Both the position numbers and the translations under genes were made by a program. A DNA stretch of 34,249 nt from Synergistaceae bacterium. Its GTDB lineage: Bacteria > Synergistota > Synergistia > Synergistales > Synergistaceae. Below are positions 4,280-31,209 of the stretch, one piece after another. A model generated the notes under the pieces. That model had not been told where the DNA came from. It did not search any database and saw only the letters and a program-made list of their open reading frames with translations. The DNA is taken from NCBI GenBank assembly GCA_030539135.1, contig JAUNSQ010000002.1:1-34249 (forward strand), written 5' to 3'. How positions within the stretch are numbered: the first letter of the stretch is position 1; every line of letters starts with the position of its first letter.

Positions 4280-5740
4280 TTGGAAAACGTAACCTATCTT
4301 ATATTGTTTATCTCGGCGATATTGCTCTTCTGTATCGCGTTCAGCCGCTTTCTTTCCAAGGCCGGTATTCCCGTGCTTGTCTTCTTCATCTTTGCCGGTA
4401 TGTTCATGGGTTCGGATGGCCTAGGCGGGATATATTTTGACAATGCGGCGGCCGCCAGCACGATAGGCAACTTTGCCATCTGCTACATTCTTTTCGCGGG
4501 CGGTATGGCCACCAGCTGGAAGTCGGCGCGCGGCGTGCTTGTCCCCGGGGCGCTGCTGGCCACGTGGGGGGTGCTGCTGACGGCGTTCCTCGTTGGCGTC
4601 TCAGCCCATTATCTCGTTGGACTGACGCTTATGCAGGGCCTGCTGCTTGGCGCCGTTGTCTCGTGTACCGATGCCGCCTCGGTCTTTTCTATCCTGCGTT
4701 CGAAGAGTATGAACCTGAAGGGCGACGTTGCTCCGCTGCTTGAGCTGGAGAGCAGCAGCAACGACCCCACAGCGTACATGCTGACTATCACGATAGTCAG
4801 CCTCATAAATTCCCCGGACAGCGGGTTAATGCGCTTTGCCGGAATGTTTCTGGCGCAGTTCGCGCTCGGCGGCGCGCTGGGGTTTGCGCTCGGTTTCGCC
4901 GGGGCTTGGATCATCAACAGGATAAAGCTCAACAGCGACGGTATGTATCCCGTTGTCGCCGTGACGATCGCTGCGCTCGTTTATACGATAATACAGACGC
5001 TGCATGGCAACGGCTTTCTCGGGATATACATAGCGGGCATGGTGATGGGGAACGTCAAATTAGTCCAGAAGGGCGTGCTCGTGCGCTTCTTCGACGGGTT
5101 TTCATGGCTGATGCAGATATTAGTCTTCGTTACGCTGGGGCTGCTTGTCTTCCCCATGCAGCTGCCGTCGGTATGGCTGCCGGCGGTGGTCACCTCGCTG
5201 CTGTTGATGTTCGTTATCCGCCCGGTCACCGTATTTTTCACCCTCATACCGTTCAATTATCAAACGAAAGCCAAGCTCCTTATTTCATGGGTAGGTTTCC
5301 GCGGAGCGTCGTCGATAGTCTTTGCCACCTATGCGCTGACCGAGAATATCGCGCAGGGAGACGTCATCTTCAATATGGTATTCATAATATCGCTCACATC
5401 GGTCATAGTACAAGGTTCTCTCCTTGCTCCGCTCGCGGCGATGCTGGATCAATTGGACACGGAGGATTCGACTCTAGTGGCGCGCAGTTTTACGGACTTT
5501 GAAGAAGACTTTCCTGGCACGCTTTACGAACTCAAAGCAGGGCAAGGTTCCAAGGCGGTTGGCCTGTTCGTAAAAGAACTTGATTTCCCGGACGAAGTTC
5601 GCATCATCATTATCAAACGCGGCGGCAGTGCTCTGACGCCGACTGGCAATACGAAACTGGAGGTCGGCGATGTCCTGACGGTTTCCGCAAAGGGGCAGCA
5701 GGAACTGCTCAGCCTGCGGACGAGGCTTGGTCTAAGCTAG
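4280..5740 (+). CDS. K+/H+ (cation:proton) antiporter, NhaP2/CvrA-like, with a C-terminal TrkA-C domain
   Basis: About 11-12 TM helices, with GMFMGSDGLGGIYFDN and ESSSNDP motifs typical of CPA1 NhaP2. The soluble C-terminal tail (GDVLTVSA) resembles TrkA-C. TTG start. Confidence 0.8.
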   Translation: MENVTYLILFISAILLFCIAFSRFLSKAGIPVLVFFIFAGMFMGSDGLGGIYFDNAAAASTIGNFAICYILFAGGMATSWKSARGVLVPGALLATWGVLLTAFLVGVSAHYLVGLTLMQGLLLGAVVSCTDAASVFSILRSKSMNLKGDVAPLLELESSSNDPTAYMLTITIVSLINSPDSGLMRFAGMFLAQFALGGALGFALGFAGAWIINRIKLNSDGMYPVVAVTIAALVYTIIQTLHGNGFLGIYIAGMVMGNVKLVQKGVLVRFFDGFSWLMQILVFVTLGLLVFPMQLPSVWLPAVVTSLLLMFVIRPVTVFFTLIPFNYQTKAKLLISWVGFRGASSIVFATYALTENIAQGDVIFNMVFIISLTSVIVQGSLLAPLAAMLDQLDTEDSTLVARSFTDFEEDFPGTLYELKAGQGSKAVGLFVKELDFPDEVRIIIIKRGGSALTPTGNTKLEVGDVLTVSAKGQQELLSLRTRLGLS

Positions 5741-7200: not shown

Positions 7201-7244
7201 CGAGCCACGTAAATCCGGTTGTGATACGCGCGGCTCGTTTTTTT
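7201..7244 (+). terminator. putative intrinsic terminator closing the CarD-like gene group
   Basis: CGAGCC (7201-06) pairs with GGCTCG (7232-37), with 3 further pairs inside, followed by TTTTTTT (7238-44). The loop is long. Confidence 0.45.
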
Positions 7245-7271
7245 GTGCGAACAGATAAGGAGAACACCATA

Positions 7272-7757
7272 ATGTCAGAAGAAAATACAGCAACAATAAA
7301 TCCTGAAAAATACGATTACGGCAAAGGCGGCGCGTACTATGTCACGGTCTGTGTCAAGGGCGGGCAGAATATCCTGTGGAAATACGCCTCAAATGTGGAC
7401 GCTGACAGCGCGGATAACACGCCACCGTTGTCAGGGCAGGGCGAACATGTCGCCGAGGCCGTCAAGTCCGTGTTTGACGAAAACAAAAACGCCGTACTGG
7501 ACAAGATGGTCGTCATGCCCAACCACATTCATTTGACGCTTTTCGTCACATTGGAGAAGGCGCAGAAGTCCGCCGTGATAAAGAGGACAGTATCAAACAT
7601 AATGGGACAAATCAAGCGCGCCACGTCGAAAGACGCGGCGTGGCAGGAATCGTATTATGACAGGCTCGTTCACGACGCCGCGCAGTATCGGAAGATATGC
7701 GAGTATATAGAAGCGAACCCGTCAAAGTGGACGGAAGACTGCTACTTCAGGGAATAA
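7272..7757 (+). CDS. IS200/IS605-type Y1 (HUH) transposase-like protein, RAYT-like
   Basis: HUH motif MPNHIHL, and the Y1 region WQESYYDRLVHDAAQYRKICEYIEANPSKW, which is the typical WQxxFyDhiiR...YIxxNP pattern. AAGGAG precedes the ATG at 7272. I saw no terminal hairpins and no tnpB. Confidence 0.75.
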   Translation: MSEENTATINPEKYDYGKGGAYYVTVCVKGGQNILWKYASNVDADSADNTPPLSGQGEHVAEAVKSVFDENKNAVLDKMVVMPNHIHLTLFVTLEKAQKSAVIKRTVSNIMGQIKRATSKDAAWQESYYDRLVHDAAQYRKICEYIEANPSKWTEDCYFRE

Positions 7758-21401: not shown

Positions 21402-21575
21402 TGTTGGATTTCCTCCCCTAATTTGCGCCGTTGCCGAAATCCCTGCGTATGGCGCAACAAGAGTAAGGCAGTTGAAAAGTTCTATCCCAATATTACAAGC
21501 CCGCGATAGGCTGAAGGTCTTTCCGCAACAGCGAACGGTCTTTGACCGTTATTGTGGCAAAGCCACAGTTGAGAC

Positions 21576-21603
21576 ATTATGATGGCTAATCGAAAAAAGT
21601 CAA
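21576..21603 (-). promoter_or_regulatory. candidate promoter giving a 5' UTR of about 170 nt for the helicase
   Basis: Minus strand reads TTGACT (21603-21598), a 16-nt spacer, then CATAAT (21581-21576). Confidence 0.4.
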
Positions 21604-21616
21604 GGGCGGATTGGCC

Positions 21617-22954
21617 TTATTCAGGCTTATATATCTCCATATCCTGCGGGAGTATCAGATCCATGACGATTGCCACGACGAAGACGACGGCTACGCAGTT
21701 TCCTGAGAAGACGTCCTTCACCATCTGGGGGAATATCTTCCATATCCCCATCTCGCTGGCGGTCGTGAACCCTATCCCAATGGCGAGCGATAGAGCCGCT
21801 ATCGTGATATTGCGCTGAGTGAACCCTGCGTCCGACAGCATACGTATCCCGCTGACCATTATCGAGCCGAAGAGCATTATCGTGCAGCCGCCTAGCACGG
21901 ACTCTGGCAGAGAGTTGAACAGCGCCCCGATCACAGGGACGAACCCCGCGAGTATCATGCAGACCGCGCCGGTCATTATCGTGAAGCGGTTGACTACCTT
22001 TGTCATAGCTATGAGCCCGACGTTCTGGCTGAACGACGTTACCGGGGTGCAGCCGAAAAGCCCTGATATCGAACTGGCGAAGCCGTCGCAGGCGAGAGAG
22101 CCGGATATCTCTTTATCAGTTATCTCCCTCTCCAGACCCATCGCCACCATCGCGGTAGTGTCTCCTATCGTCTCCGTTGCGGAGACGAGAAATATTATCG
22201 CGACGGATATTATTGCGTTTATGTTAAAGACGGGCGTAAAGGGCATGAGTTTCGGCACGGATATTATCCCGTGTCCCATTATGCCGGATATGTCCACGAT
22301 GCCGAGACACAGCGCTGCGGCGTACCCCACGAAAAGTCCCACGAGCACGGAAAGCTGTTTTAGATGACCCTTAGCGAAGATGTTGAACGCGATGCACGTT
22401 GCAAGCGTTATGGCGCCGAGCGTAAGGTTCTGCGCAGAGCCGAACGAGCTCGTATAGCCGCCGCCGAACGACCTCGCCCCGATGCCGAGCAGCGAATACC
22501 CTATGGCGGTAACGACGGACGCCGCGACGATGGGCGACACGATCTTTCTCCAATATTTAGCGCAGAGTCCGAGAGTGCCCTCAAACATCCCTCCGACGAT
22601 AACGGCTCCTATGACCGCCGGATAACCGTAATTAGCTCCGACGTAGCTGAGTATCGTCACAAACGTGAAACTGACGCCCATGACTATCGGCAGACGAGCG
22701 CCGACGCGCCAGATGGGGTAAAGCTGTATGAGAGTCCCTATACCGGCGGCGAACATGGAGTTCTGGAGCAGCATAGTCATATCCGAGGCTGGGAGTTTGC
22801 AGGCGGACCCCACGACCGCGATCGGAGCGAGGTTGGCTACGAACATGGCGAGCACGTGCTGCAGCCCGAAAGGTATCGCCTTCAAAAGCGGGACTCTGCC
22901 GTCCAAGCGGTAGATATTTTCTATAGATGCGTTCTGTTGTTTATGCTGGCTCAT
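21617..22954 (-). CDS. NCS2-family nucleobase (uracil/xanthine-type) permease
   Basis: Contains GLQHVLAMFVANLAPIAVV and FSQNVGLIAMT motifs. 445 aa with about 13 TM helices. Confidence 0.85.
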   Translation of the reverse strand: MSQHKQQNASIENIYRLDGRVPLLKAIPFGLQHVLAMFVANLAPIAVVGSACKLPASDMTMLLQNSMFAAGIGTLIQLYPIWRVGARLPIVMGVSFTFVTILSYVGANYGYPAVIGAVIVGGMFEGTLGLCAKYWRKIVSPIVAASVVTAIGYSLLGIGARSFGGGYTSSFGSAQNLTLGAITLATCIAFNIFAKGHLKQLSVLVGLFVGYAAALCLGIVDISGIMGHGIISVPKLMPFTPVFNINAIISVAIIFLVSATETIGDTTAMVAMGLEREITDKEISGSLACDGFASSISGLFGCTPVTSFSQNVGLIAMTKVVNRFTIMTGAVCMILAGFVPVIGALFNSLPESVLGGCTIMLFGSIMVSGIRMLSDAGFTQRNITIAALSLAIGIGFTTASEMGIWKIFPQMVKDVFSGNCVAVVFVVAIVMDLILPQDMEIYKPE

Positions 22955-23022
22955 AAGATGTCCCTCCGTGTTAATTTAAGTAAATATATCATACTATCTG
23001 TCTTGACGGATGAAAATTTCGT

Positions 23023-23051
23023 TTGACACACGGCTGAAAAGATGGTAATAT
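23023..23051 (+). promoter_or_regulatory. near-consensus sigma70 promoter of the Ile-leader/OFOR transcript
   Basis: TTGACA (23023-28), exactly 17 nt, then TAATAT (23046-51). Confidence 0.6.
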
Positions 23052-23083
23052 CCCGCGTATTCTGAGAGAGGGAGGGCGTTGCT

Positions 23084-23158
23084 ATGTTGCGCAAGTCATT
23101 CAATAACAACATCATTATTATAATTAACGCGGCTCCTCCTCGCAGGATCGGCGTCTAG
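23084..23158 (+). CDS. Ile-run leader peptide (24 aa)
   Basis: MLRKSFNNNIIIIINAAPPRRIGV. GGGAGGG lies 7 nt upstream of the ATG. There are five consecutive Ile codons (ATC ATT ATT ATA ATT, 23111-23125) and a sixth near the end. Confidence 0.65.
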   Translation: MLRKSFNNNIIIIINAAPPRRIGV

Positions 23159-23180
23159 CGCCGTTTGTCCAAGCGAGTAA

Positions 23181-23216
23181 GGGAGCCTTTCACGATTGTG
23201 AGGGGCTCCTTTTTTT
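23181..23216 (+). terminator. intrinsic terminator (attenuator) upstream of the OFOR operon
   Basis: GGGAGCCUUUCAC-GAUU-GUGAGGGGCUCC forms a 12-13 bp stem followed by UUUUUUU. It sits 29 nt upstream of the gamma-subunit ATG. Confidence 0.8.
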
Positions 23217-23244
23217 GTGGTTTAAATCAAAGGAGGAGTTTCAA

Positions 23245-23823
23245 ATGGAAAAAGGCAAGACGATCGAAGTACGCTGGCACGGACGCGGGGGACAGGGAGC
23301 GAAGAGCGCTTCCGCGATACTAGCTGAGGTGCTGTTTGAGGGAGGAAAACACGTGCAGGCTTTCCCGGAGTACGGAGCGGAGCGTCAGGGTGCGCCGATG
23401 CGAGCCTATAACAGGGTCTCCGACAGGCCCATACGCCGCCGCTGCGGGGTCCAGAACCCAAATATAGTCGTCGTCGTAGACCCGACGATGGTCGAGAGCG
23501 CAAACCCATGCGAGGGCTGCGCGAAGGACGCCGTATATCTCGTGAACACGCCGGAGGACGCGAAGACCCTGCGCGAGAGGATGCACCTCTCACAGCGCGC
23601 GAAAGTGCTGGCGGTAGACGCTACGAAGATAACGCTCGAGGAGCTTGGGCAGAACAGGCCGAACGCGCCGATACTCGGAGCGCTGTCGAGGATATTCACG
23701 GACGTATCCGTAGATAATTTCGCCGACCACTTCACGAAGAAGATGAAGAAGCTGCCGCAGAACGTCATAGACGCGAACCGCAGGGCGATACTCAGAGGCC
23801 GCGAAGAGGCGGTGCTGGCATGA
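23245..23823 (+). CDS. 2-oxoacid:ferredoxin oxidoreductase, gamma subunit (POR/VOR family)
   Basis: Contains GRGGQGAKSASAILAE...AFPEYGAERQGAP. AAAGGAGG SD. Confidence 0.85.
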   Translation: MEKGKTIEVRWHGRGGQGAKSASAILAEVLFEGGKHVQAFPEYGAERQGAPMRAYNRVSDRPIRRRCGVQNPNIVVVVDPTMVESANPCEGCAKDAVYLVNTPEDAKTLRERMHLSQRAKVLAVDATKITLEELGQNRPNAPILGALSRIFTDVSVDNFADHFTKKMKKLPQNVIDANRRAILRGREEAVLA

Positions 23824-24164
23824 GCGAACCGCAGTGCTGGCAGGACGTCGCTCCCGGGACTGTCGCTTTCGGCGCGACCGCGCTGGAAGTGGAGACCGGG
23901 CTTTGGCGGAGCGTGCGTCCTGTCTTCGACCTCAATAAATGCGTGTCATGTATGAAATGCTGGTTCCAGTGCCCGGATATGTCAGTCAAACTGGGCGAAG
24001 GCGGCAAGGTTTGCGGAGCAGACCTCTTCTTCTGCAAGGGCTGCGGGATATGCGCTTCCGTCTGTCCGGTGAAAGCCGTAACGATGCGTCCCGAATCAGA
24101 TTTCAGCGACGAACGTGATAAACATGGCGCGAACCCCGGAGGCGTGGCCGACCATGTCAAATAA
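23820..24164 (+). CDS. 2-oxoacid:ferredoxin oxidoreductase, delta subunit (2x[4Fe-4S] ferredoxin-type)
   Basis: Contains CVSCMKCWFQCP and CKGCGICASVCP. ATGA overlap with the gamma subunit gene. Confidence 0.85.
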   Translation: MSEPQCWQDVAPGTVAFGATALEVETGLWRSVRPVFDLNKCVSCMKCWFQCPDMSVKLGEGGKVCGADLFFCKGCGICASVCPVKAVTMRPESDFSDERDKHGANPGGVADHVK

Positions 24165-25347
24165 GAGACGCGAGATGACCTCGGGAAACTTGGCTTTCGC
24201 CGAGGCGATGAGGCAGATAAATCCAGACGTCGTAGCCGCGTACCCTATAACCCCGTCCACCGATATCCCCGTCCGCTTCGCCGAATTTGTCGCGAACGGG
24301 CAGGTAGATTCCGAATATGTTGCGGTCGAGAGCGAGCACTCCGCGATAACGGCATGCGTGGGCGCGTCCGTCGCCGGCGCGCGCGTCATGACCGCGTCGA
24401 GCGCCAACGGAGTCGCGCTGATGCATGAGATATTCCCTATAGCTTCGGCCTTTAGGGCCCCGATCGTATTTGGCCTTGTGAACAGATGCCTCGGAGCGCC
24501 GGTCAATATCCACTGCGACCATTCGGACAGCATGGCCGAGCGAGATTCTGGGTGGATACAGATATACTGCGAGGACGCGCAGGAAGTCTACGACAGCGTG
24601 CTTCTCGCGGTCAGGCTGGCGGAGCATAAGAAGGTGCTTACTCCTGTGTTCGTCTGTCAGGACGGATTTATAACGAGCCATTGTTTTGAGCCTGTGGAAT
24701 TCCTCGCCGACGACGCGGTGAAAAAATTTGTCGGCGTCCGCGACCCGCAGTACCCCCTGCTTGACGTTGACAACCCCGTTTCATACGGCTCGTTCACGAT
24801 GTCCGAATACTATTTTGAGATCAAACGCAATCAGATAGAGGGCATCAACAACGTGCCGAAAGTATATCGCGAACTGTCGGCGGAGTTGGCGAAAGAGACC
24901 GGCCGCGAATATCCGATGGTCGACGCTTACAGGGCCGACGACGCGGACTATCTGATAATCATCATGTCCTCCGCGTCGGGAGTCGTCAAGGACGTCGTCG
25001 ATGAGATGCGCGAGGACGGCGTAAAGGCAGGATGTCTGCGCGTGAGGTTTTTCCGCCCGTTTCCGAAGGACGACTTGATGCGCCTTGTGAACGGCAAGAA
25101 GGGAGTCGCCGTTCTTGACAGGTGCCTTAGCATCGGAGGTTCGGCCCCGCTTGCCGCGGAGGTCAAGGCCGCGCTCTATGGGCTTGAACGCCGCGTGCCT
25201 GTGCAGGAATATGTGTTCGGCCTCGGAGGCCGCGATTTCTATCCAAAGGACGCCATCGACGTGTTCTGCAAGCTGGCCGATGATAATTACAGCCCGTCAG
25301 TGCGTTACATAGGCCTCCGCGAGAAGGAGGAAGAAAATGTCTATTGA
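24154..25347 (+). CDS. 2-oxoacid:ferredoxin oxidoreductase, alpha subunit
   Basis: Contains GNLAFAEAMRQINPDVVAAYPITPSTDI. The start is uncertain (ATG at 24154 or 24175); the track start at 24115 is probably too early. Confidence 0.85.
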   Translation: MSNKRREMTSGNLAFAEAMRQINPDVVAAYPITPSTDIPVRFAEFVANGQVDSEYVAVESEHSAITACVGASVAGARVMTASSANGVALMHEIFPIASAFRAPIVFGLVNRCLGAPVNIHCDHSDSMAERDSGWIQIYCEDAQEVYDSVLLAVRLAEHKKVLTPVFVCQDGFITSHCFEPVEFLADDAVKKFVGVRDPQYPLLDVDNPVSYGSFTMSEYYFEIKRNQIEGINNVPKVYRELSAELAKETGREYPMVDAYRADDADYLIIIMSSASGVVKDVVDEMREDGVKAGCLRVRFFRPFPKDDLMRLVNGKKGVAVLDRCLSIGGSAPLAAEVKAALYGLERRVPVQEYVFGLGGRDFYPKDAIDVFCKLADDNYSPSVRYIGLREKEEENVY

Positions 25348-26266
25348 TCTCAAGGAACTCATAAAGAAGCCGAACCCCCTTACTCAGGGGCATCGCATGT
25401 GCCCGGGCTGCGGAGCGCCGACGGCGATACGCCAAGCTCTCATGGCTGTGGACGACCCAGTAGTTATCGTGGGGGCCACGGGGTGCATGGAGGTATCGAC
25501 GACTGTATATCCATACAGCGCGTGGCGCGTCCCGTTCATGCACGTGGCTTTTGAGAACGCGGGGGCTGGAATATCCGGCGTGCAGGCCGCGCATAAGGTA
25601 TTGAGCAGACAGGGCCGCGCGAAAGAGGGTATTAAATTCGTCGCGTTCGGCGGTGACGGGGGAACGTACGATATCGGGCTTCAGTCGCTCTCAGGCGCGC
25701 TAGAACGCGGGCATGACTTTACGTACATCTGCTACAACAATCAGGGCTACATGAACACGGGGGCGCAGAGGAGCAGCGCTACGCCGCTGAACGCGAGCGC
25801 GACCACCTCGCCCGCCGGGAGCGTCATCCCCGGAAAATTGCAGAGGGCGAAAGACCTTACGGAGATCGTAGCGGCACACAACATACCTTATGTTGCGCAG
25901 ACGACGTTGCACGACCCTATGGACCTCATAAAGAAAGTCAAGAGGGCCGTAGAGACGCCCGGCCCGGCGTTCGTCAACGTGCTCGTCCCGTGCGTCCTCT
26001 TCTGGAAGATAGACCAAGGCGACCAGATGAAGATATGTCAGTTGGCCGCCGACAGCCGTTTCTGGCCCGTGTACGAGGTCGCGGGCGGGAAATACAGCCT
26101 ATCATACAAGCCGAAGAAGGACGTCCCGCTTGAGGACTTTCTTCGCGCGCAGGGCAGATACTCGCACCTCTTCAAAAAGGGCAGGGAGCGCATGGACCTC
26201 GTAGCGGCCGCGCAGGCCGACGTTGACGAGAGCTGGAAGAAACTGCTTGTGAAGTGCGCGCTCTAA
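25337..26266 (+). CDS. 2-oxoacid:ferredoxin oxidoreductase, beta (TPP-binding) subunit
   Basis: Contains GHRMCPGCG and FGGDGGTYDIG...NNQGYMNTG. Confidence 0.85.
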   Translation: MSIDLKELIKKPNPLTQGHRMCPGCGAPTAIRQALMAVDDPVVIVGATGCMEVSTTVYPYSAWRVPFMHVAFENAGAGISGVQAAHKVLSRQGRAKEGIKFVAFGGDGGTYDIGLQSLSGALERGHDFTYICYNNQGYMNTGAQRSSATPLNASATTSPAGSVIPGKLQRAKDLTEIVAAHNIPYVAQTTLHDPMDLIKKVKRAVETPGPAFVNVLVPCVLFWKIDQGDQMKICQLAADSRFWPVYEVAGGKYSLSYKPKKDVPLEDFLRAQGRYSHLFKKGRERMDLVAAAQADVDESWKKLLVKCAL

Positions 26267-26306
26267 TGATAAGTTTTGCGAAATATCCGCTTTGTATAAA
26301 TTTGCG

Positions 26307-26335
26307 TTGTGTTTTACAAAAATATGTGATATTAT
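26307..26335 (+). promoter_or_regulatory. candidate extended -10 promoter of the Trp-leader/trpB transcript
   Basis: TTGTGT (26307-12), a 17-nt spacer, then TGaTATTAT (extended -10; hexamer at 26330-35). Confidence 0.4.
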
Positions 26336-26367
26336 CCACGCAATCTTGAGATTTAGGGGAAATTTTT

Positions 26368-26427
26368 ATGGTATCAGTTCTTGCGAACGACATGAATAAA
26401 ACAAACTGGTGGTGGCTTCGCGCTTAG
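26368..26427 (+). CDS. Trp-run leader peptide (19 aa)
   Basis: MVSVLANDMNKTNWWWLRA. AGGGGA lies 8 nt upstream of the ATG. There are three consecutive UGG codons at 26407-26415. Confidence 0.65.
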   Translation: MVSVLANDMNKTNWWWLRA

Positions 26428-26460
26428 AATGCCCGCCGGTTTCCCTGTGTATTGATGTAA

Positions 26461-26499
26461 GGGCTCGGACGGGTAAAACGTCGGAGCCCTTTTTATTTT
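26461..26499 (+). terminator. intrinsic terminator T1 (attenuator) upstream of trpB
   Basis: GGGCUCGGACG-GGUAAAA-CGUCGGAGCCC (10 bp, one G.G mismatch) followed by UUUUUAUUUU. Confidence 0.75.
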
Positions 26500-26506
26500 G
26501 GAAGAG

Positions 26507-26544
26507 ATGAAAGGGGAGGAAACAAACCCCTTTCATTTTTTTAT
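26507..26544 (+). terminator. second intrinsic terminator T2 in the trpB leader
   Basis: AUGAAAGGGG-AGGAAACAAA-CCCCUUUCAU forms a perfect 10-bp stem followed by UUUUUUUA. Confidence 0.65.
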
Positions 26545-26595
26545 ATATCGAATACAGCTGAGATAAGCTGAGAAAAGACTGAGGAGGAAACAATC

Positions 26596-27792
26596 ATGAC
26601 AACAAGGACAGCAGGTTTTCCAGAGGGAAAAATGTACGGGAATTTCGGCGGCATGTACGTGCCGAAGGAACTAGAGCCGATAATGACGGAGATCGCCGCG
26701 GAATACGAGAAGTGCAAGGCCGACCCTACGTTCAAAGAAGAATATCTAAGGCTCATGAAGGAATATGTCGGCCGCCCGTCCGCGCTGACAGAATGCGGGA
26801 ACCTTTCAAAAGAGACAGGAGGCGCGCGTATCTTCCTAAAGCGCGAAGACCTGAACCATACCGGAGCGCACAAGATAAACAACTGCATCGGACAGGCCCT
26901 TCTTGCCCGCCGCATGGGAAAGAAAAAGATAATAGCCGAGACTGGAGCCGGGATGCACGGAGTCGCCGCCGCGACCGTAGCCGCCCTGATGGGCATGGAG
27001 TGCGACATCTATATGGGAGCTGTGGACGTGGCGCGTCAGGCTCCGAACGTACTGCGCATGAAGGCTCTGGGGGCGCGGGTCGTATCCGTCGAGGCGGGAC
27101 AGAAGACATTGAAGGAGGCCGTCGACGCGGCGCTCGGCGCGCTGTGCGAGGACACGTCGCTCTTCTACCTCATAGGCTCTGCGGTGGGGCCGCACCCGTA
27201 TCCGGCGATGGTGCAGGACTTCCAGCGGATAATAGGCGACGAGGCGAGGGCGCAGATGCTTGAGCGCGAAGGCCGTCTGCCCGACGCGGTAGTCGCTTGC
27301 GTAGGCGGCGGGAGCAACGCGATAGGGGCTTTCACGGCTTTCATAAACGACAAAGGCGTGAGGCTCATCGGAGTCGAGCCTTCCGGCCGCGGGCTGACCT
27401 ATGGCAACCACGCCGCGTCTCTCACGATGGGCAGGCCCGGCGTTCTTCACGGATTTAAGAGCTATGTGCTGACGAAGGACGACGGCGAACCCGCGGAAGT
27501 ATATTCGATAGCGGCGGGGCTCGATTATCCGTCAGTTGGCCCCGCTCACGCCGCGCTCAAAGAGAGCGGCCGCGGCGAGTATATAGGCGCGAGCGACGCG
27601 GAGGCGTTAGACGCCTTCAAGCTCCTCTGCCGCACCGAGGGCATAATCCCCGCGCTTGAAAGCTCGCACGCCTTGGCAGGGGCTCTCAAAGCAGCGAAGA
27701 CCATGAAGGCGGGAGACATCATCCTAGTCAACCTCTCCGGCCGCGGCGACAAAGATATGGAGACCATCGCGAAATTAGGGATATTGGATTAA
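26596..27792 (+). CDS. trpB: tryptophan synthase beta chain (TrpB1-type), stand-alone
   Basis: Contains [15 protein letters not shown] (PLP lysine), [16 protein letters not shown] and SGRGDKD. GAGGAGG SD. No trpA or other trp genes are in the window. Confidence 0.9.
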
Positions 27793-27830
27793 GCGACGAT
27801 AGGCCAAACTATACATTTGCTGTTTATATG

Positions 27831-27857
27831 GGCGCGGGTATTTCTGCCGCGTCCTTT
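27831..27857 (+). terminator. weak terminator-like hairpin after trpB
   Basis: GGCGCGG (27831-37) pairs with CCGCGTC (27847-53), followed by CTTTG. Confidence 0.35.
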
Positions 27858-27931
27858 GTGATATGTTCCACGATGCTCGCTTTTGTGCTAATATTTTATA
27901 GATACAATCGGTTGCATTGCGAGGTGGTCGA

Positions 27932-28510
27932 ATGAAAGTTACTATGAGCGACGTGGCGAAGGCCGCGGGAGTCGATAAAGCTACCGTCAGCCGGGCCTTG
28001 AAGGGCGACCCCCGGATATCCGAGAAGACCAGGGCGCTTGTCATGGACAGCGTGCGCACGCTTGGCTACAGACCCGACCTCAACGCCCGCCACCTTTCGA
28101 CGAACCGCAGCGGCTTCATCGGCCTGCTGCTCAGGGAGCTCAACGCGCCCGGAAGCATCGAGTTCATCTCCGGGCTTGACCGAGCTATTTCCAATTCCGA
28201 ATATGACCTTCTCATAAAGTGCACCGACGGCGACCCGCGCAGGGCCGCGCGCGAGCTTGCCAAACTGTCCGACAGGGACATCGAGGGTTTGATATGGGAA
28301 GATTCGGAGAACTTGCCTAAGGATATTTCCGTGCCATTGCTGACCATCGGATTTAAGCACAGTGGTTCAATATCATTGCTGTCCGAGGACGGTGGGCGGC
28401 TCCTGACATTTGAGACGGGAGCTCTAGCCGGGAGGCTGCTGCTGAACGCGATAATGGGGCGGCCTGTCCCGACCCACGAGGTCATCATCAGAAATTCCAA
28501 AGGGGAATAA
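27932..28510 (+). CDS. LacI-family HTH regulator, unusually short (192 aa)
   Basis: The HTH is MKVTMSDVAKAAGVDKATVSRALKGDPRISEKTRALVMDSVRTLGYRPDLNARHL. This is followed by only about 130 aa of sugar-binding-like domain, whereas normal family members have about 270 aa. Confidence 0.8.
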   Translation: MKVTMSDVAKAAGVDKATVSRALKGDPRISEKTRALVMDSVRTLGYRPDLNARHLSTNRSGFIGLLLRELNAPGSIEFISGLDRAISNSEYDLLIKCTDGDPRRAARELAKLSDRDIEGLIWEDSENLPKDISVPLLTIGFKHSGSISLLSEDGGRLLTFETGALAGRLLLNAIMGRPVPTHEVIIRNSKGE

Positions 28511-28516
28511 TATATT

Positions 28517-30235
28517 TTGACGATATTATTTTCACCGCATAGAAATCATCTCATAAGAATATTTTCATTTGCCGTGCTGTTCGCAGCGGCAATATTTGTT
28601 TTAGCGCCAGCCGCCCGTGCGGAGCGGAGGTTCGATCCGGCGAAGGTATACGGCCCCCGCATCGATAAGCTGTGCATGGTCATCATCAGAAATTCCGACT
28701 CACAGATACTCGCCGCGCAGAAGGGCGACATAGATATATTGGGCGATATCGTGCTGCCTTCGGATATCGACAGACTCAGCCGCGACCCAAATCTGAACAT
28801 GTCGCTTGCCCGAGGGTTTCACGCTTTCTTTCTGCTGATGAACAACAAGACCGCGCCGTGGAACGATAAATACGTGCGCCAAGCCGCCGCCGCGGCCATC
28901 GACCGCAACAATATGGTGAGAACGATATATTCCGGGTACTGCGAACCGATAAACAGCTGGCTTCCTCCCGTCTCCCCTTGGGCGATACCCGAGAGCGGGA
29001 AAAATATCTTTGACCGCGGGCTTGCGCGTGAAAAGCTCAAATCTGCGGGGTATTCATGGAACTTGGCTGGGACGCTTGTGGCTCCAAACGGCAAGGCTAT
29101 TCCCAAACTCAAACTGATGACGCCTCTGGCGCGCGTCGCCCCGACGACGGCGGAGCTCGCGGAGCAGATAGCCGATTCTCTGCGGGCGGTGGGCTTTCCC
29201 GTAGAGGTAGAGCCTATGGATTTCTCGGCGATGCTCGCCAAGCTGAACGACAAAAAATATTCCTTGGCCGTACTTGCGTGGGGTATGGGGCGCAACCCTG
29301 ACTCGCTGTACTCGTTCTACCACAGCTCGATGGACATGCCCGGAGGACAAAATCTCACGGGCACGCATGACAAGCAGCTTGACAATACGCTCGACCGCCT
29401 GCGCTTCGCGAAGAACAAGCAGGACGCTGAGAGGGCGTCGTCGGAGGCGCAGCATCTGCTGGCAGACCTGGTGCCGTCCGTCCCTATATACAGCCGCTTC
29501 TCAGTCGCGGCCGTCTCAAAAAAGTGGAAGAACGTGCTGATGACGGACAAGATAACCGCGGACAACATGTGGACGCTGATGATGGCGGAGCCAAAGGACG
29601 GGAAGAAACGGCCGCTGAACATGGCGCTCGCCGAGGAGCCGCGCAACATGAACCCGTTTGTAGCGAGCAGCGCTTACACGTGGCAGGTGCTTGGAATGAT
29701 ATACGAAGGGATGATAGGGACCGACCCGTTCACTCTGAAAGATATGCCGGCTCTGGCGGAGTCATGGAGCGTCGAGACCGTTGGCGGCGGGGCGGACGCC
29801 CGCACAGTCCTCAATTTCAAAATCAAAAAGGGGCTGAAGTGGAACGACGGGACGCCTCTGACCGCGCATGACGCAAAGGCCACTATAGACTTCCTGAAAA
29901 AGAATAAAGTGCCGCGATATTTCGACGCGGTGAAGAATGTTAAATCGACAGCTGCCTACGACGACGGGCGGCTCGTCGTCCAGATGGACGGCGTCAGCTA
30001 TTGGCATCTGGACAATATAGGCGGCATGATAGTCATGCCGGCGCGGGTGTTGGAGAAGATAAAGGACTGGCAGAACTGGAACCCGCTGGATAAGAGCGCG
30101 AAGTTCGGACCTTACGGACTTATAGGCTGCGGCCCGTTCATGCTTGAGGAATACAAGACCGGCGAATACGTTATGATGAAGCGCAATCCGTATTACAGGA
30201 TGCTCGCCGGTCCGAGAGGCGGCGCGGCGAAATGA
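28517..30235 (+). CDS. ABC transporter substrate-binding protein, family 5 (Opp/Dpp/Nik-type), circularly permuted
   Basis: Signal peptide ends ..AVLFAAAIFVLAPAARA|E. Residues ~45-345 look like the C-terminal two-thirds of DppA-type SBPs (VRQAAAAAIDRNNMV...). Residues ~360-560 look like the canonical N-terminal third (NMNPF...IYEGM...PALAESWSV...KKGLKWNDGTPLTAHD...GCGPFML). TTG start. Confidence 0.85.
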   Translation: MTILFSPHRNHLIRIFSFAVLFAAAIFVLAPAARAERRFDPAKVYGPRIDKLCMVIIRNSDSQILAAQKGDIDILGDIVLPSDIDRLSRDPNLNMSLARGFHAFFLLMNNKTAPWNDKYVRQAAAAAIDRNNMVRTIYSGYCEPINSWLPPVSPWAIPESGKNIFDRGLAREKLKSAGYSWNLAGTLVAPNGKAIPKLKLMTPLARVAPTTAELAEQIADSLRAVGFPVEVEPMDFSAMLAKLNDKKYSLAVLAWGMGRNPDSLYSFYHSSMDMPGGQNLTGTHDKQLDNTLDRLRFAKNKQDAERASSEAQHLLADLVPSVPIYSRFSVAAVSKKWKNVLMTDKITADNMWTLMMAEPKDGKKRPLNMALAEEPRNMNPFVASSAYTWQVLGMIYEGMIGTDPFTLKDMPALAESWSVETVGGGADARTVLNFKIKKGLKWNDGTPLTAHDAKATIDFLKKNKVPRYFDAVKNVKSTAAYDDGRLVVQMDGVSYWHLDNIGGMIVMPARVLEKIKDWQNWNPLDKSAKFGPYGLIGCGPFMLEEYKTGEYVMMKRNPYYRMLAGPRGGAAK

Positions 30236-31209
30236 GCCGTTCGTGGCTGATACGCAGGATATTGTCCTCGCTTGCCGTGCTGGCCGCCGTGCTAGTGCTG
30301 AACTTCCTGCTGTTCCGCATAATGCCCGGCGACGCCGTAAGCACGATAATCGACCCGAACTTCTCGCCTGAGGCCAAGGCGCGTCTGCGCGAGCTTTACG
30401 GGCTTGACAAGCCTATGCTCGAACAGTTCTTCATATACATAAAGCAGATGCTGACGTTTAGCTTCGGGCTGTCGTTCCTGAGCAGGAAGCCCGTATGGGA
30501 CGAACTGTTTTCGCGTCTGCCGTCCACTCTCATACTTATGAGCCTGTCGATGATATTCTCCGCGGCCTTGGGGATATGGCTCGGCATAAAGGCCGCTGTC
30601 AAACGCGGAACGCTCCTTGAGAGGGCGGTGCTCAGGCTTGGCGCGGTTACGGCGTCTTTCCCGGGATTTTTTGTCCAGCTTGTGCTTATAATGCTCTTCG
30701 CCAGGATATTCCCAATTTTCCCTCTGCGCGGCACGCTTTCCGTGCCTCCGCCCACCGGTATATTCGCGTACTTGTGCGACTACGCCATGCACATGGCTCT
30801 CCCTGTGTTCTCTCTGACGCTTATGGGCTTCGGAGGCTGGGCTTTGTTCGTGCGCAATATGATGGTGCGCGCTCTCTCCGAGGACTATATCATAATGGCG
30901 CGCGCGAGGGGGCTCTCGGAGAGCAGGGTGATATACGGACACGCCTTTAGAGCGATACTTCCCCCCATTCTTACGATACTGCTTATGTCCGTTCCCGGGC
31001 TCGTGTCGGGGGCTGTTATAACAGAAACGGTATTCTCGCTTTACGGCGTAGGCACGTTCCTGCTCGAAGCCGTGTCCGGTCATGATTACCCGTCTGCGGG
31101 GGCCGCGTTCTATCTGCTTGCTCTGATAACCGTCGTCTGCAACCTGCTCGCCGATATCGTCTACGGCATGGTAGACCCCCGCGTGCGCATAGAGGGGCGC
31201 AACCAATGA
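30232..31209 (+). CDS. ABC transporter permease (DppB/OppB-like)
   Basis: Begins RRILSSLAVLAAVLVLNFLLFRIMPGD and shows a BPD_transp_1 EAA-loop pattern. ATGA overlap with the SBP gene. Confidence 0.85.
   Translation: MSRSWLIRRILSSLAVLAAVLVLNFLLFRIMPGDAVSTIIDPNFSPEAKARLRELYGLDKPMLEQFFIYIKQMLTFSFGLSFLSRKPVWDELFSRLPSTLILMSLSMIFSAALGIWLGIKAAVKRGTLLERAVLRLGAVTASFPGFFVQLVLIMLFARIFPIFPLRGTLSVPPPTGIFAYLCDYAMHMALPVFSLTLMGFGGWALFVRNMMVRALSEDYIIMARARGLSESRVIYGHAFRAILPPILTILLMSVPGLVSGAVITETVFSLYGVGTFLLEAVSGHDYPSAGAAFYLLALITVVCNLLADIVYGMVDPRVRIEGRNQ

Follow-up and report, generated by a model that had tools for sequence, protein, structure and literature searches.

An isoleucine-codon leader-peptide attenuator predicted upstream of a four-subunit 2-oxoacid:ferredoxin oxidoreductase operon in Synergistaceae

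The first 34,249 nucleotides of contig JAUNSQ010000002.1 from a Synergistaceae bacterium (GenBank assembly GCA_030539135.1), hereafter the window, contain a four-gene operon for a 2-oxoacid:ferredoxin oxidoreductase (OFOR). The operon is preceded by a leader region with the layout of an amino-acid-responsive attenuator, namely a promoter, a short open reading frame (ORF) with five consecutive isoleucine codons, and an intrinsic terminator whose 5' arm can instead pair within an antiterminator. The upstream neighbor is an NCS2 permease gene (21617-22954, minus strand) that diverges from the leader region, and because of this divergence the terminator in the leader region is not needed by any upstream gene. 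The features of the leader region and the operon are as follows, with positions given in the window.

23023-23051, plus strand: sigma-70-type promoter, TTGACA (23023-28), 17-nt spacer, TG-extended TAATAT (23046-51); score 10/12
23059-23081, plus strand: region 1, the 5' untranslated region (UTR) with GGGAGGG (23070-76), the ribosome-binding site of the leader; pairing with region 2 is possible
23084-23158, plus strand: leader ORF of 24 codons, ATG 23084-86 to TAG 23156-58, encoding MLRKSFNNNIIIIINAAPPRRIGV; seen in the sequence and in homologues
23111-23125, plus strand: five consecutive Ile codons, ATC ATT ATT ATA ATT (regulatory codons)
23131-23148, plus strand: region 2, putative antiterminator 5' strand (GGCUCCU, CUCGC, GGAU) in leader codons 16-22; from folding and homologues
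23149-23163, plus strand: small hairpin, its loop containing the leader stop codon; 98% of cells paired in the homologues
23167-23187, plus strand: region 3, putative antiterminator 3' strand (GUCC, GCGAG, GGGAGCC), of which 23179-87 is common to the terminator 5' arm
23179-23216, plus strand: intrinsic terminator, 13-15 bp stem (23179-93 with 23198-212), GAUU loop, tract of seven U (U7) at 23210-16
23230-23238, plus strand: ribosome-binding site AAGGAGGAG of the first structural gene (gamma), kept in the alignment
23245-23823, plus strand: OFOR gamma subunit; PF01558, TIGR02175 (PorC_KorC) 179.7 bits, cutoff 81.1
23820-24164, plus strand: OFOR delta subunit, 2x[4Fe-4S] ferredoxin-like; Fer4, TIGR02179 (PorD_KorD) 90.2 bits, cutoff 60.05
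24154-25347, plus strand: OFOR alpha subunit, start at 24154 or 24175; PF01855, PF17147, PorA_Arch 476 bits, cutoff 550
25337-26266, plus strand: OFOR beta subunit, binds thiamine pyrophosphate; PF02775, PorB PRK11865 335 bits, cutoff 405

The promoter is the top promoter-like site in a scan of positions 21500-31000, and its -35 and extended -10 hexamers keep their position in about 32 homologous loci (alignment A1); a transcription start near 23058 is inferred from it. The leader ORF, situated between the promoter and the gamma gene, has its own ribosome-binding site, with GGGAGGG followed by 7 nt and then ATG 23084. A run of five Ile codons, (ATH)5, occurs a single time in the 34-kb window, counting both strands, and in 0 of 100 dinucleotide-preserving shuffles, and the stretch 23058-23244 folds more stably than shuffled sequences (z = -4.04). 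A first-pass annotation, made from the letters of the window alone, had placed the promoter, the Shine-Dalgarno sequence, the 24-codon ORF with its Ile run, and the gamma start codon (ATG at 23245) exactly here, and had proposed an Ile-codon leader attenuator as the core reading; the parts were all found where it put them, and the comparative and modeled folding evidence argues strongly for that core reading.

Relatives were collected by a genome scan with the alpha subunit (best 80 of 181 relatives, all at least 48% identical). Among the Synergistaceae loci with at least 72% alpha identity and with upstream DNA available, the leader is present in 33 of 34. The region 2 motif was also used to scan metagenomes; the 120 matches listed (a partial set of the targets) comprise 101 chance matches in GC-rich DNA and 19 true leaders, the latter picked by requiring the Ile run. 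On 18 metagenome contigs the leader lies directly 5' of the gamma gene, and the nineteenth leader (L170) precedes a dehydratase gene. The predicted leader is conserved in more than 50 independent sequences, which rules out chance, and as an apparent attenuator it is conserved across gut and digester Synergistaceae. In the one Synergistaceae locus that lacks it, L030 (JAITNX010000047.1), the leader ORF and the terminator are gone from the roughly 130 nt 5' of the gamma gene, and the promoter and about the first 20 nt of the 5' UTR are kept; the arrangement suggests a natural deletion, which would be expected to leave the operon constitutively expressed.

Among 34 aligned leaders, an in-frame start follows the ribosome-binding site at a distance of 3-11 nt (6-11 in nearly all), except that L033 begins at a contig end, with its ribosome-binding site outside the visible sequence. 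The ORFs have 24-29 codons and a common stop that always falls in the loop of the small hairpin, and the N-terminal part of the peptide varies freely in length and sequence. The Ile run consists of 4-6 consecutive codons in which variation is synonymous only (ATT 108, ATA 59, ATC 20, ATG 0); more than 50 sequences have nothing but Ile in it, and the leader lacks any run of Val or Leu codons. The distance from the last Ile codon to GGCUCC is fixed at 8 or 11 nt in all homologues. The tail behaves in the opposite way, i.e., CGCGGCTCC in region 2 is invariant, including its synonymous sites, though the encoded residues vary (R/G/W, I/N/D, V/A/D). Since the run keeps its amino acid while its codons vary, and the tail does the reverse, the run appears to be selected as translated Ile codons and the tail as RNA. 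The expectation that orthologous OFOR operons would keep the Ile run and show compensatory changes is borne out for the loci with at least 72% identity, the compensatory changes lying mostly in the terminator.

The choice of Ile codons in the run is itself skewed. ATT accounts for 58% of the leader Ile codons versus 5% in window genes (17/314, 13 ORFs) and 14.5% in homologous OFOR genes, and is the least-used Ile codon in both gene sets. The most-used Ile codon is ATA, with 54% in the 13 window ORFs and 46% in the OFOR genes of L001-L079, and in L012, L014, L017, and L020 the Ile codons are almost only ATC. Ile codon preference is unusual and variable within this one family.

The terminator stem (23179-23212) is the longest in a terminator scan and has a stem energy of -23.4 kcal/mol. 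It had first been read as a 12-13 bp hairpin with U7 at 23181-23216, of which hairpin and U7 tract stand and only the stem length was slightly low. In the competing fold, GGCUCCU (23131-37) pairs with GGGAGCC (23181-87) and CUCGC (23139-43) with GCGAG (23173-77); both helices had been proposed in the first-pass annotation and were recovered by eye and in truncated-transcript folds. The stop-codon hairpin that they enclose was likewise found, one base wider on each side than the span of 23150-62 first drawn for it, and its changes in homologues are nearly all one-sided. It is followed in all homologues by a U-rich stretch (GUUUG, GUAUU, or GUUUU; 23149-23170 with the hairpin). The combination resembles a hairpin-dependent pause signal for RNA polymerase, and may synchronize transcription with leader translation.

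For the folding tests, transcripts were truncated and masked throughout on the 5' side of the ribosome, with assumed ribosome footprint sizes. The antiterminator is the minimum-free-energy fold once the transcript ends before the terminator 3' arm; for transcripts ending at 23190 or 23197 this holds whenever 23131 onward is free. With the mask ending at 23123-29, as for a stall at Ile1-3, the antiterminator forms; with a stall at Ile5, 5 of its 12 pairs form, and with the ribosome at the stop codon, none. The model thus behaves as had been predicted, with a stalled ribosome freeing the antiterminator strand and a ribosome at the stop codon covering it. Full-transcript equilibrium folding with a footprint-only mask was dropped, as it gave pairs between region 1 and region 2 that spanned the ribosome and were sterically unrealistic. 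The region 1:region 2 duplex is present in the minimum-free-energy fold and beats shuffles in 37 leaders (mean z = -2.7; per-sequence energies, mononucleotide shuffles), which suggests that region 1 acts as an anti-antiterminator favoring termination when the leader is not translated.

Both folds are kept in the homologues. In the terminator, 7 of 15 pairs are changed on both sides and 90.7% of cells are paired. The antiterminator pairs in 98.5% of 736 cells (46 distinct sequences), versus 37-51% with the partner slid, though these counts come from an alignment (A5) that was fitted to the model and therefore leans to the structure; its helix 1 is paired in 100% of the 46 sequences, and three antiterminator pairs are changed on both sides. 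Where a terminator A-U pair has become G-C, the antiterminator partner stays U and forms a U-G pair, such that neither fold is lost. The same antiterminator is predicted by RNAalifold, without use of the window's own fold, from 25 homologues that were cut off ahead of the terminator 3' arm.

The enzyme encoded downstream was assigned with family models. Gamma and delta score above the cutoffs of the 'pyruvate/2-ketoisovalerate family' subfamily models, by which pyruvate:ferredoxin oxidoreductase (POR, or PFOR) and 2-ketoisovalerate:ferredoxin oxidoreductase (VOR) are not told apart. POR models score best for all four subunits, though below the NCBIfam PorABCD equivalog cutoffs (PorC 188 vs 270, PorD 88.5 vs 120, PorA 476 vs 550, PorB 335 vs 405), and the VOR equivalog cutoffs are unmet as well (alpha 348 vs 646, beta-type 265 vs 405, delta 70 vs 166). 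Among solved structures, the four-subunit pyruvate:ferredoxin oxidoreductase 9bt4 (alpha, chain B, 287 bits; beta, chain C, 275 bits) comes closest, with oxalate oxidoreductase as the next. By these scores the operon encodes a four-subunit OFOR of the pyruvate/2-ketoisovalerate subfamily that is more POR-like than VOR-like, and a VOR-type enzyme, as the 2-methylbutyryl-CoA route of the first-pass annotation would require, draws no support of its own. In 33 related genomes, the conserved unit consists of the four OFOR genes only (gamma-delta-alpha-beta), with varying flanking genes, and Pfam annotation of the remaining window gave no ilv genes. Synergistaceae genomes carry one copy of this OFOR each, as judged from the best 80 of 181 relatives.

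A covariance model (R1) built from OFOR-linked leaders only gave full-length matches before genes for IlvA-like Ser/Thr dehydratases, with E-values of 1e-8 to 1e-12 (1e-12 for L207, named Aminiphilus sp.; 6e-10 for L204; 1e-8 for L170 and L201), and no matches in leaderless loci. In L170, from a GC-rich organism, the leader precedes a dehydratase of 317 aa with the IlvA-like catalytic domain only. The same kind of leader is present in each of its homologues (98%, 87%, and 63% identity), the last of them belonging to an Aminiphilus sp. of the family Aminiphilaceae, and the closer ones have azlCD upstream, a family annotated as branched-chain amino-acid transport. Leader peptides linked to IlvA are, e.g., MAKKFCPMVSSHANMAIIIIADAAPPRGNGD and MSDMHQSTTRFTCSFCSAIIIITSAAPPRRTGA. 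Together with the OFOR leader, the IlvA-linked leaders (Aminiphilus-like genomes, L170, L201-L208) have an IIII run, AAPPR, the stop-codon hairpin, a GCGAG...GGGGCC region 3, the terminator, and the promoter layout; they differ in a target that makes 2-oxobutyrate from threonine, in higher-GC hosts, in having four Ile codons, and in azlCD upstream. By this comparison, one predicted attenuator family controls either an IlvA-like threonine dehydratase or this OFOR. Threonine dehydratase forms 2-oxobutyrate in the committed first step to Ile. An R1 match before azlCD in L201-L203 was considered as a third target class and rejected: at about 4402-4488 and in the next 150 nt, these loci have a VIII or MIII run, a terminator, and then a truncated ilvA-like 5' end, and the stop codon of this degenerate duplicate is lost. 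The second leader copy looks like a remnant of a duplication or rearrangement around azlCD. In L204-L206, no leader was found before azlC.

A second attenuator candidate is found in the window at 26369-26428 (plus strand), where an ORF encoding MVSVLANDMNKTNWWWLRA contains a run of three Trp codons (26408-16). Downstream of the ORF lie two terminator-like hairpins with T-runs (about 26461-26498 and 26510-26545) and then a lone trpB (26596-27792, plus strand), a gene that is absent from this position in related loci. A similar Trp leader, MTLMRDALYVQNWWWQT, precedes the trpE operon in L204/L205, and NWWW occurs in both Trp leaders. The Trp leaders before trpB and trpE indicate that leader-peptide attenuation of biosynthetic genes is used in this lineage. 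A generic scan of the loci for other run-type leaders gave the Ile family only; it missed the Trp leader of the window, whose ribosome-binding site falls outside the search pattern.

The reading that best fits these data, and one that we consider quite probable from sequence comparison and modeled folding, is a leader-peptide transcription attenuator that reads the charging of tRNA-Ile and controls the four-gene OFOR operon; less certainly, the enzyme would be induced to supply an Ile precursor. Transcription would start near 23058, and a ribosome would load at the leader ribosome-binding site and ATG 23084 and translate the 24-codon leader. When Ile-tRNA is plentiful, the ribosome would reach UAG 23156 and cover region 2 (23131-48) and the stop-codon hairpin; region 3 would then be unpaired, the 15-bp terminator with its U7 tract would form, and transcription would end near 23216. 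When Ile-tRNA is scarce, the ribosome would stall on the first Ile codon of the run at 23111-25, which is mostly ATT. Region 2 would then be free to pair with region 3 once this is made, the base of the terminator stem would be sequestered, and RNA polymerase would read into the operon, provided that the inferred footprints and folding kinetics apply. With the leader untranslated, region 1 could pair with region 2 and favor termination. Upon Ile starvation, the OFOR would be induced and might then run reductively and supply the Ile precursor.

Several points weigh against this reading. Full-length RNA at equilibrium always favors the terminator, and the switch depends on co-transcriptional kinetics, which are modeled here by truncation and masking. 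Apart from the leaning of alignment A5, comparative support for the antiterminator consists mostly of conserved pairing with few compensatory changes, and column-wise pairing between regions 1 and 2 is weak (63%), a figure that is partly due to MAFFT shifting the purine-rich 5' UTR and in place of which the per-sequence duplex energies were used. No leader is present in loci with at most 71% identity, including Thermovirgaceae, Aminivibrio, Acetomicrobium, and non-Synergistota; upstream of the distant orthologues, neither a leader with non-consecutive Ile codons nor an ORF with a ribosome-binding site was found, and a comparison of 15 leaderless OFOR loci with Rfam gave only downstream tRNAs, with no T-box or other element. 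The leaderless sister-family orthologues resemble ordinary, possibly catabolic, OFORs. As to function, the OFOR is not a recognized Ile-biosynthetic enzyme, no acyl-CoA-forming enzyme or aminotransferase is co-transcribed with it in the 33 related genomes compared, and Synergistaceae ferment amino acids, a lifestyle in which the normal direction of OFORs is oxidative.

Less certain is the reaction that such an enzyme would catalyze. Carboxylation of propionyl-CoA with CO2 and reduced ferredoxin to 2-oxobutyrate appears at least as likely as carboxylation of 2-methylbutyryl-CoA to 2-oxo-3-methylvalerate, and the tilt to the propionyl-CoA route follows from the POR-like scores, the PFOR-like closest structure, and the threonine dehydratase parallel. 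According to PMC7476758, with reference to Buchanan 1969, Monticello 1984, and Eikmanns 1983, ferredoxin-dependent propionyl-CoA carboxylation to 2-oxobutyrate is a documented anaerobe route to Ile. For rumen organisms, a reductive carboxylation of 2-methylbutyrate to Ile has been reported as well, among others by Monticello 1984 as cited in PMC7476758. The first-pass annotation had let the OFOR serve Ile synthesis by way of 2-methylbutyryl-CoA; the broad link to Ile is supported by the homologous leader before IlvA-like dehydratases, and the specific route drew no support of its own. A further proposal, which we hold tentatively and rate slightly more doubtful than not, is that a POR-type OFOR was recruited as a dedicated, Ile-starvation-induced 2-oxoacid synthase (forming 2-oxobutyrate or 2-oxo-3-methylvalerate) and represents a non-orthologous replacement of the slot held by the IlvA-like enzyme in Aminiphilus-like relatives.

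Among the other explanations, one keeps the attenuator and assigns the operon to a VOR-like enzyme that salvages environmental 2-methylbutyrate, with 2-methylbutyryl-CoA converted to 2-oxo-3-methylvalerate and then to Ile by transamination. The Ile-only run would fit an Ile-specific salvage step, the gamma and delta subfamily models leave room for a VOR, the 2-methylbutyrate carboxylation reported for rumen organisms (see above) supplies a precedent, and the lone trpB, i.e., indole salvage, under a Trp leader fits the logic of salvaging fermentation end products. This explanation is possible but rather unlikely, given that POR models outscore VOR models for all four subunits (alpha 476, PorA_Arch, vs 348; beta 335 vs 265), that the closest solved structure is a PFOR, and that the homologous leader elsewhere precedes an enzyme forming 2-oxobutyrate and not a branched-chain product. 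We regard it as more improbable still that the attenuator is real but unconnected with Ile synthesis, the OFOR being a plain POR-type enzyme of catabolism or central metabolism and the Ile run a general amino-acid or translation-capacity sensor that raises oxidative 2-oxoacid metabolism in starvation. It draws on the POR-like nature of the enzyme, its single copy per Synergistaceae genome among the best 80 of 181 relatives, the lack of biosynthetic partner genes in the operon, and the orthologues with 60-71% identity in other Synergistales families, which have plain promoters and no leader. It is hard to rationalize, however, why a central energy enzyme should stand behind a terminator of 15 bp and U7 that is relieved only by Ile starvation; moreover, more than 50 sequences have a run made up of Ile only, the same leader family also controls an IlvA-like dehydratase beside azlCD, and the Trp leaders of this lineage control trp biosynthesis genes.

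Two further explanations dispense with the Ile codons as sensor. Arrest by the AAPPR nascent peptide, in polyproline fashion and perhaps dependent on elongation factor P (EF-P), or an untranslated RNA that binds a protein or ligand, could be imagined, since N/S/D-AAPP(S)-R is conserved as amino acids from Synergistaceae to Aminiphilus-like genomes and Pro-Pro is a known slow-translating motif. Yet the Ala and Pro codons hardly vary at their synonymous positions, which indicates constraint on RNA rather than on peptide, Pro is replaced by Ser in the Cloacibacillus/Caccocola group, the residues after Arg vary, and no T-box or other Rfam family matches; the Ile run, in contrast, keeps its amino acid with varying codons, as expected from selection on Ile-codon translation. 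This makes such a mechanism very improbable. Least credible of all is a chance ORF that happens to lie next to a plain terminator or insulator between two divergent genes. Terminator-like sites in a simple scan of the window are no commoner than in shuffles (9 vs 8.7), which could speak for it, but no gene needs a terminator here with the NCS2 permease diverging, (ATH)5 is expected 0 times, and the whole module is found with its frame intact in more than 50 sequences, a conservation that effectively refutes it.

The mechanism as such is known. With the ilvL leader of ilvGMEDA, the ivbL leader of ilvBN, and the leu leaders of E. coli, which follow the trp and his paradigm, the predicted element has in common a short translated leader, tandem regulatory codons, an intrinsic terminator, and a mutually exclusive antiterminator whose 5' strand runs from just 3' of the regulatory codons to the leader stop. 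The rare CUA codons of the leu leader are presumably comparable to the poorly used ATT here, and we take the GC-rich stem codons after the run, which give Pro/Ala/Gly/Arg, to be as in IlvL (...IIIPPCGAALGRGKA). The points of difference are the phylum (Synergistota and not Proteobacteria), the Ile-only run instead of a mixed Ile/Val/Leu one, an OFOR instead of ilv/leu genes as target, and a region 1 that is formed by the 5' UTR and ribosome-binding site, outside the leader coding sequence; there is no sequence or Rfam relation. Ile T-box riboswitches of Firmicutes ilv-leu operons follow the same logic, in which uncharged tRNA-Ile leads to antitermination of Ile-related genes, but bind tRNA directly and need no leader translation, and the leader region gave no T-box match. 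Outside Proteobacteria, the Corynebacterium ilvBNC leader is another attenuator. Comparison for a cognate codon run with alternative hairpins, as used here, has also led to the prediction of His-codon leaders in the Bacillus cereus group, Peptostreptococcaceae, and Erysipelotrichales (PMC9413887). Such cases show the mechanism to be widespread; those leaders control canonical biosynthesis and transport genes, and in that study Synergistetes were analyzed for the HisR repressor only, with no leader reported there.

Rfam searches gave 0 matches for the whole window at gathering thresholds, including the Leu, Thr, His, and Trp leaders and the T-box, and only noise for 22900-23300 at E-values up to 10 (snoRNA and caiA matches, explained by the ribosome-binding site and the hairpin). 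In the literature searched, neither this leader element nor an amino-acid-responsive attenuator on any OFOR is described, and no report of leader-peptide attenuation in Synergistota was found; to our knowledge, no OFOR is controlled by such an attenuator. The only Synergistetes genome in the Breaker-lab genome surveys is that of Thermovirga lienii, from a family without this leader. On the side of the enzyme, methanogen POR works in the carboxylating direction. The anabolic POR of a methanogen (9bt4) and the POR activity termed '2-oxobutyrate synthase' (Buchanan 1969, via PMC7476758) are the closest parallels noted, with the same subunit set, from which the OFOR described here differs in scoring below the NCBIfam equivalog cutoffs.

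Downstream of the OFOR operon and trpB, the window encodes a short LacI-family protein of 197 aa with a helix-turn-helix and a partial sensor domain (27917-28510, plus strand), and directly after it a 572-aa SBP_bac_5 protein (28517-30235, plus strand) in which two matched stretches stand in swapped order relative to the family profile. The LacI/SBP_bac_5 pair is kept downstream of the OFOR operon in many loci. Elsewhere, an ORF at 7221-7757 (plus strand) matches IS200-like (Y1) transposases weakly (E = 6e-6).

The leader described here would represent a new leader-peptide attenuator family outside Rfam, in Synergistota, with at least two target classes and with a Trp-leader family alongside in the same genomes, and its presence may mark Ile-linked genes when Synergistota metagenomes are annotated. 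OFORs are hard to assign by homology, and a leader of this kind may serve as a sequence-based pointer to their in vivo direction and role. Its control by Ile starvation would speak for an enzyme that works anabolically, in the carboxylating direction, toward Ile in bacteria of the gut, the rumen, and digesters, where propionate and 2-methylbutyrate are abundant. Cultured relatives exist in Cloacibacillus and Synergistes. If recruitment as an Ile-starvation-induced 2-oxoacid synthase holds true, this would be the first OFOR under amino-acid-specific translational sensing, and, together with the lone trpB under its Trp leader, it would point to a lifestyle of rebuilding amino acids from propionate or 2-methylbutyrate and from indole.

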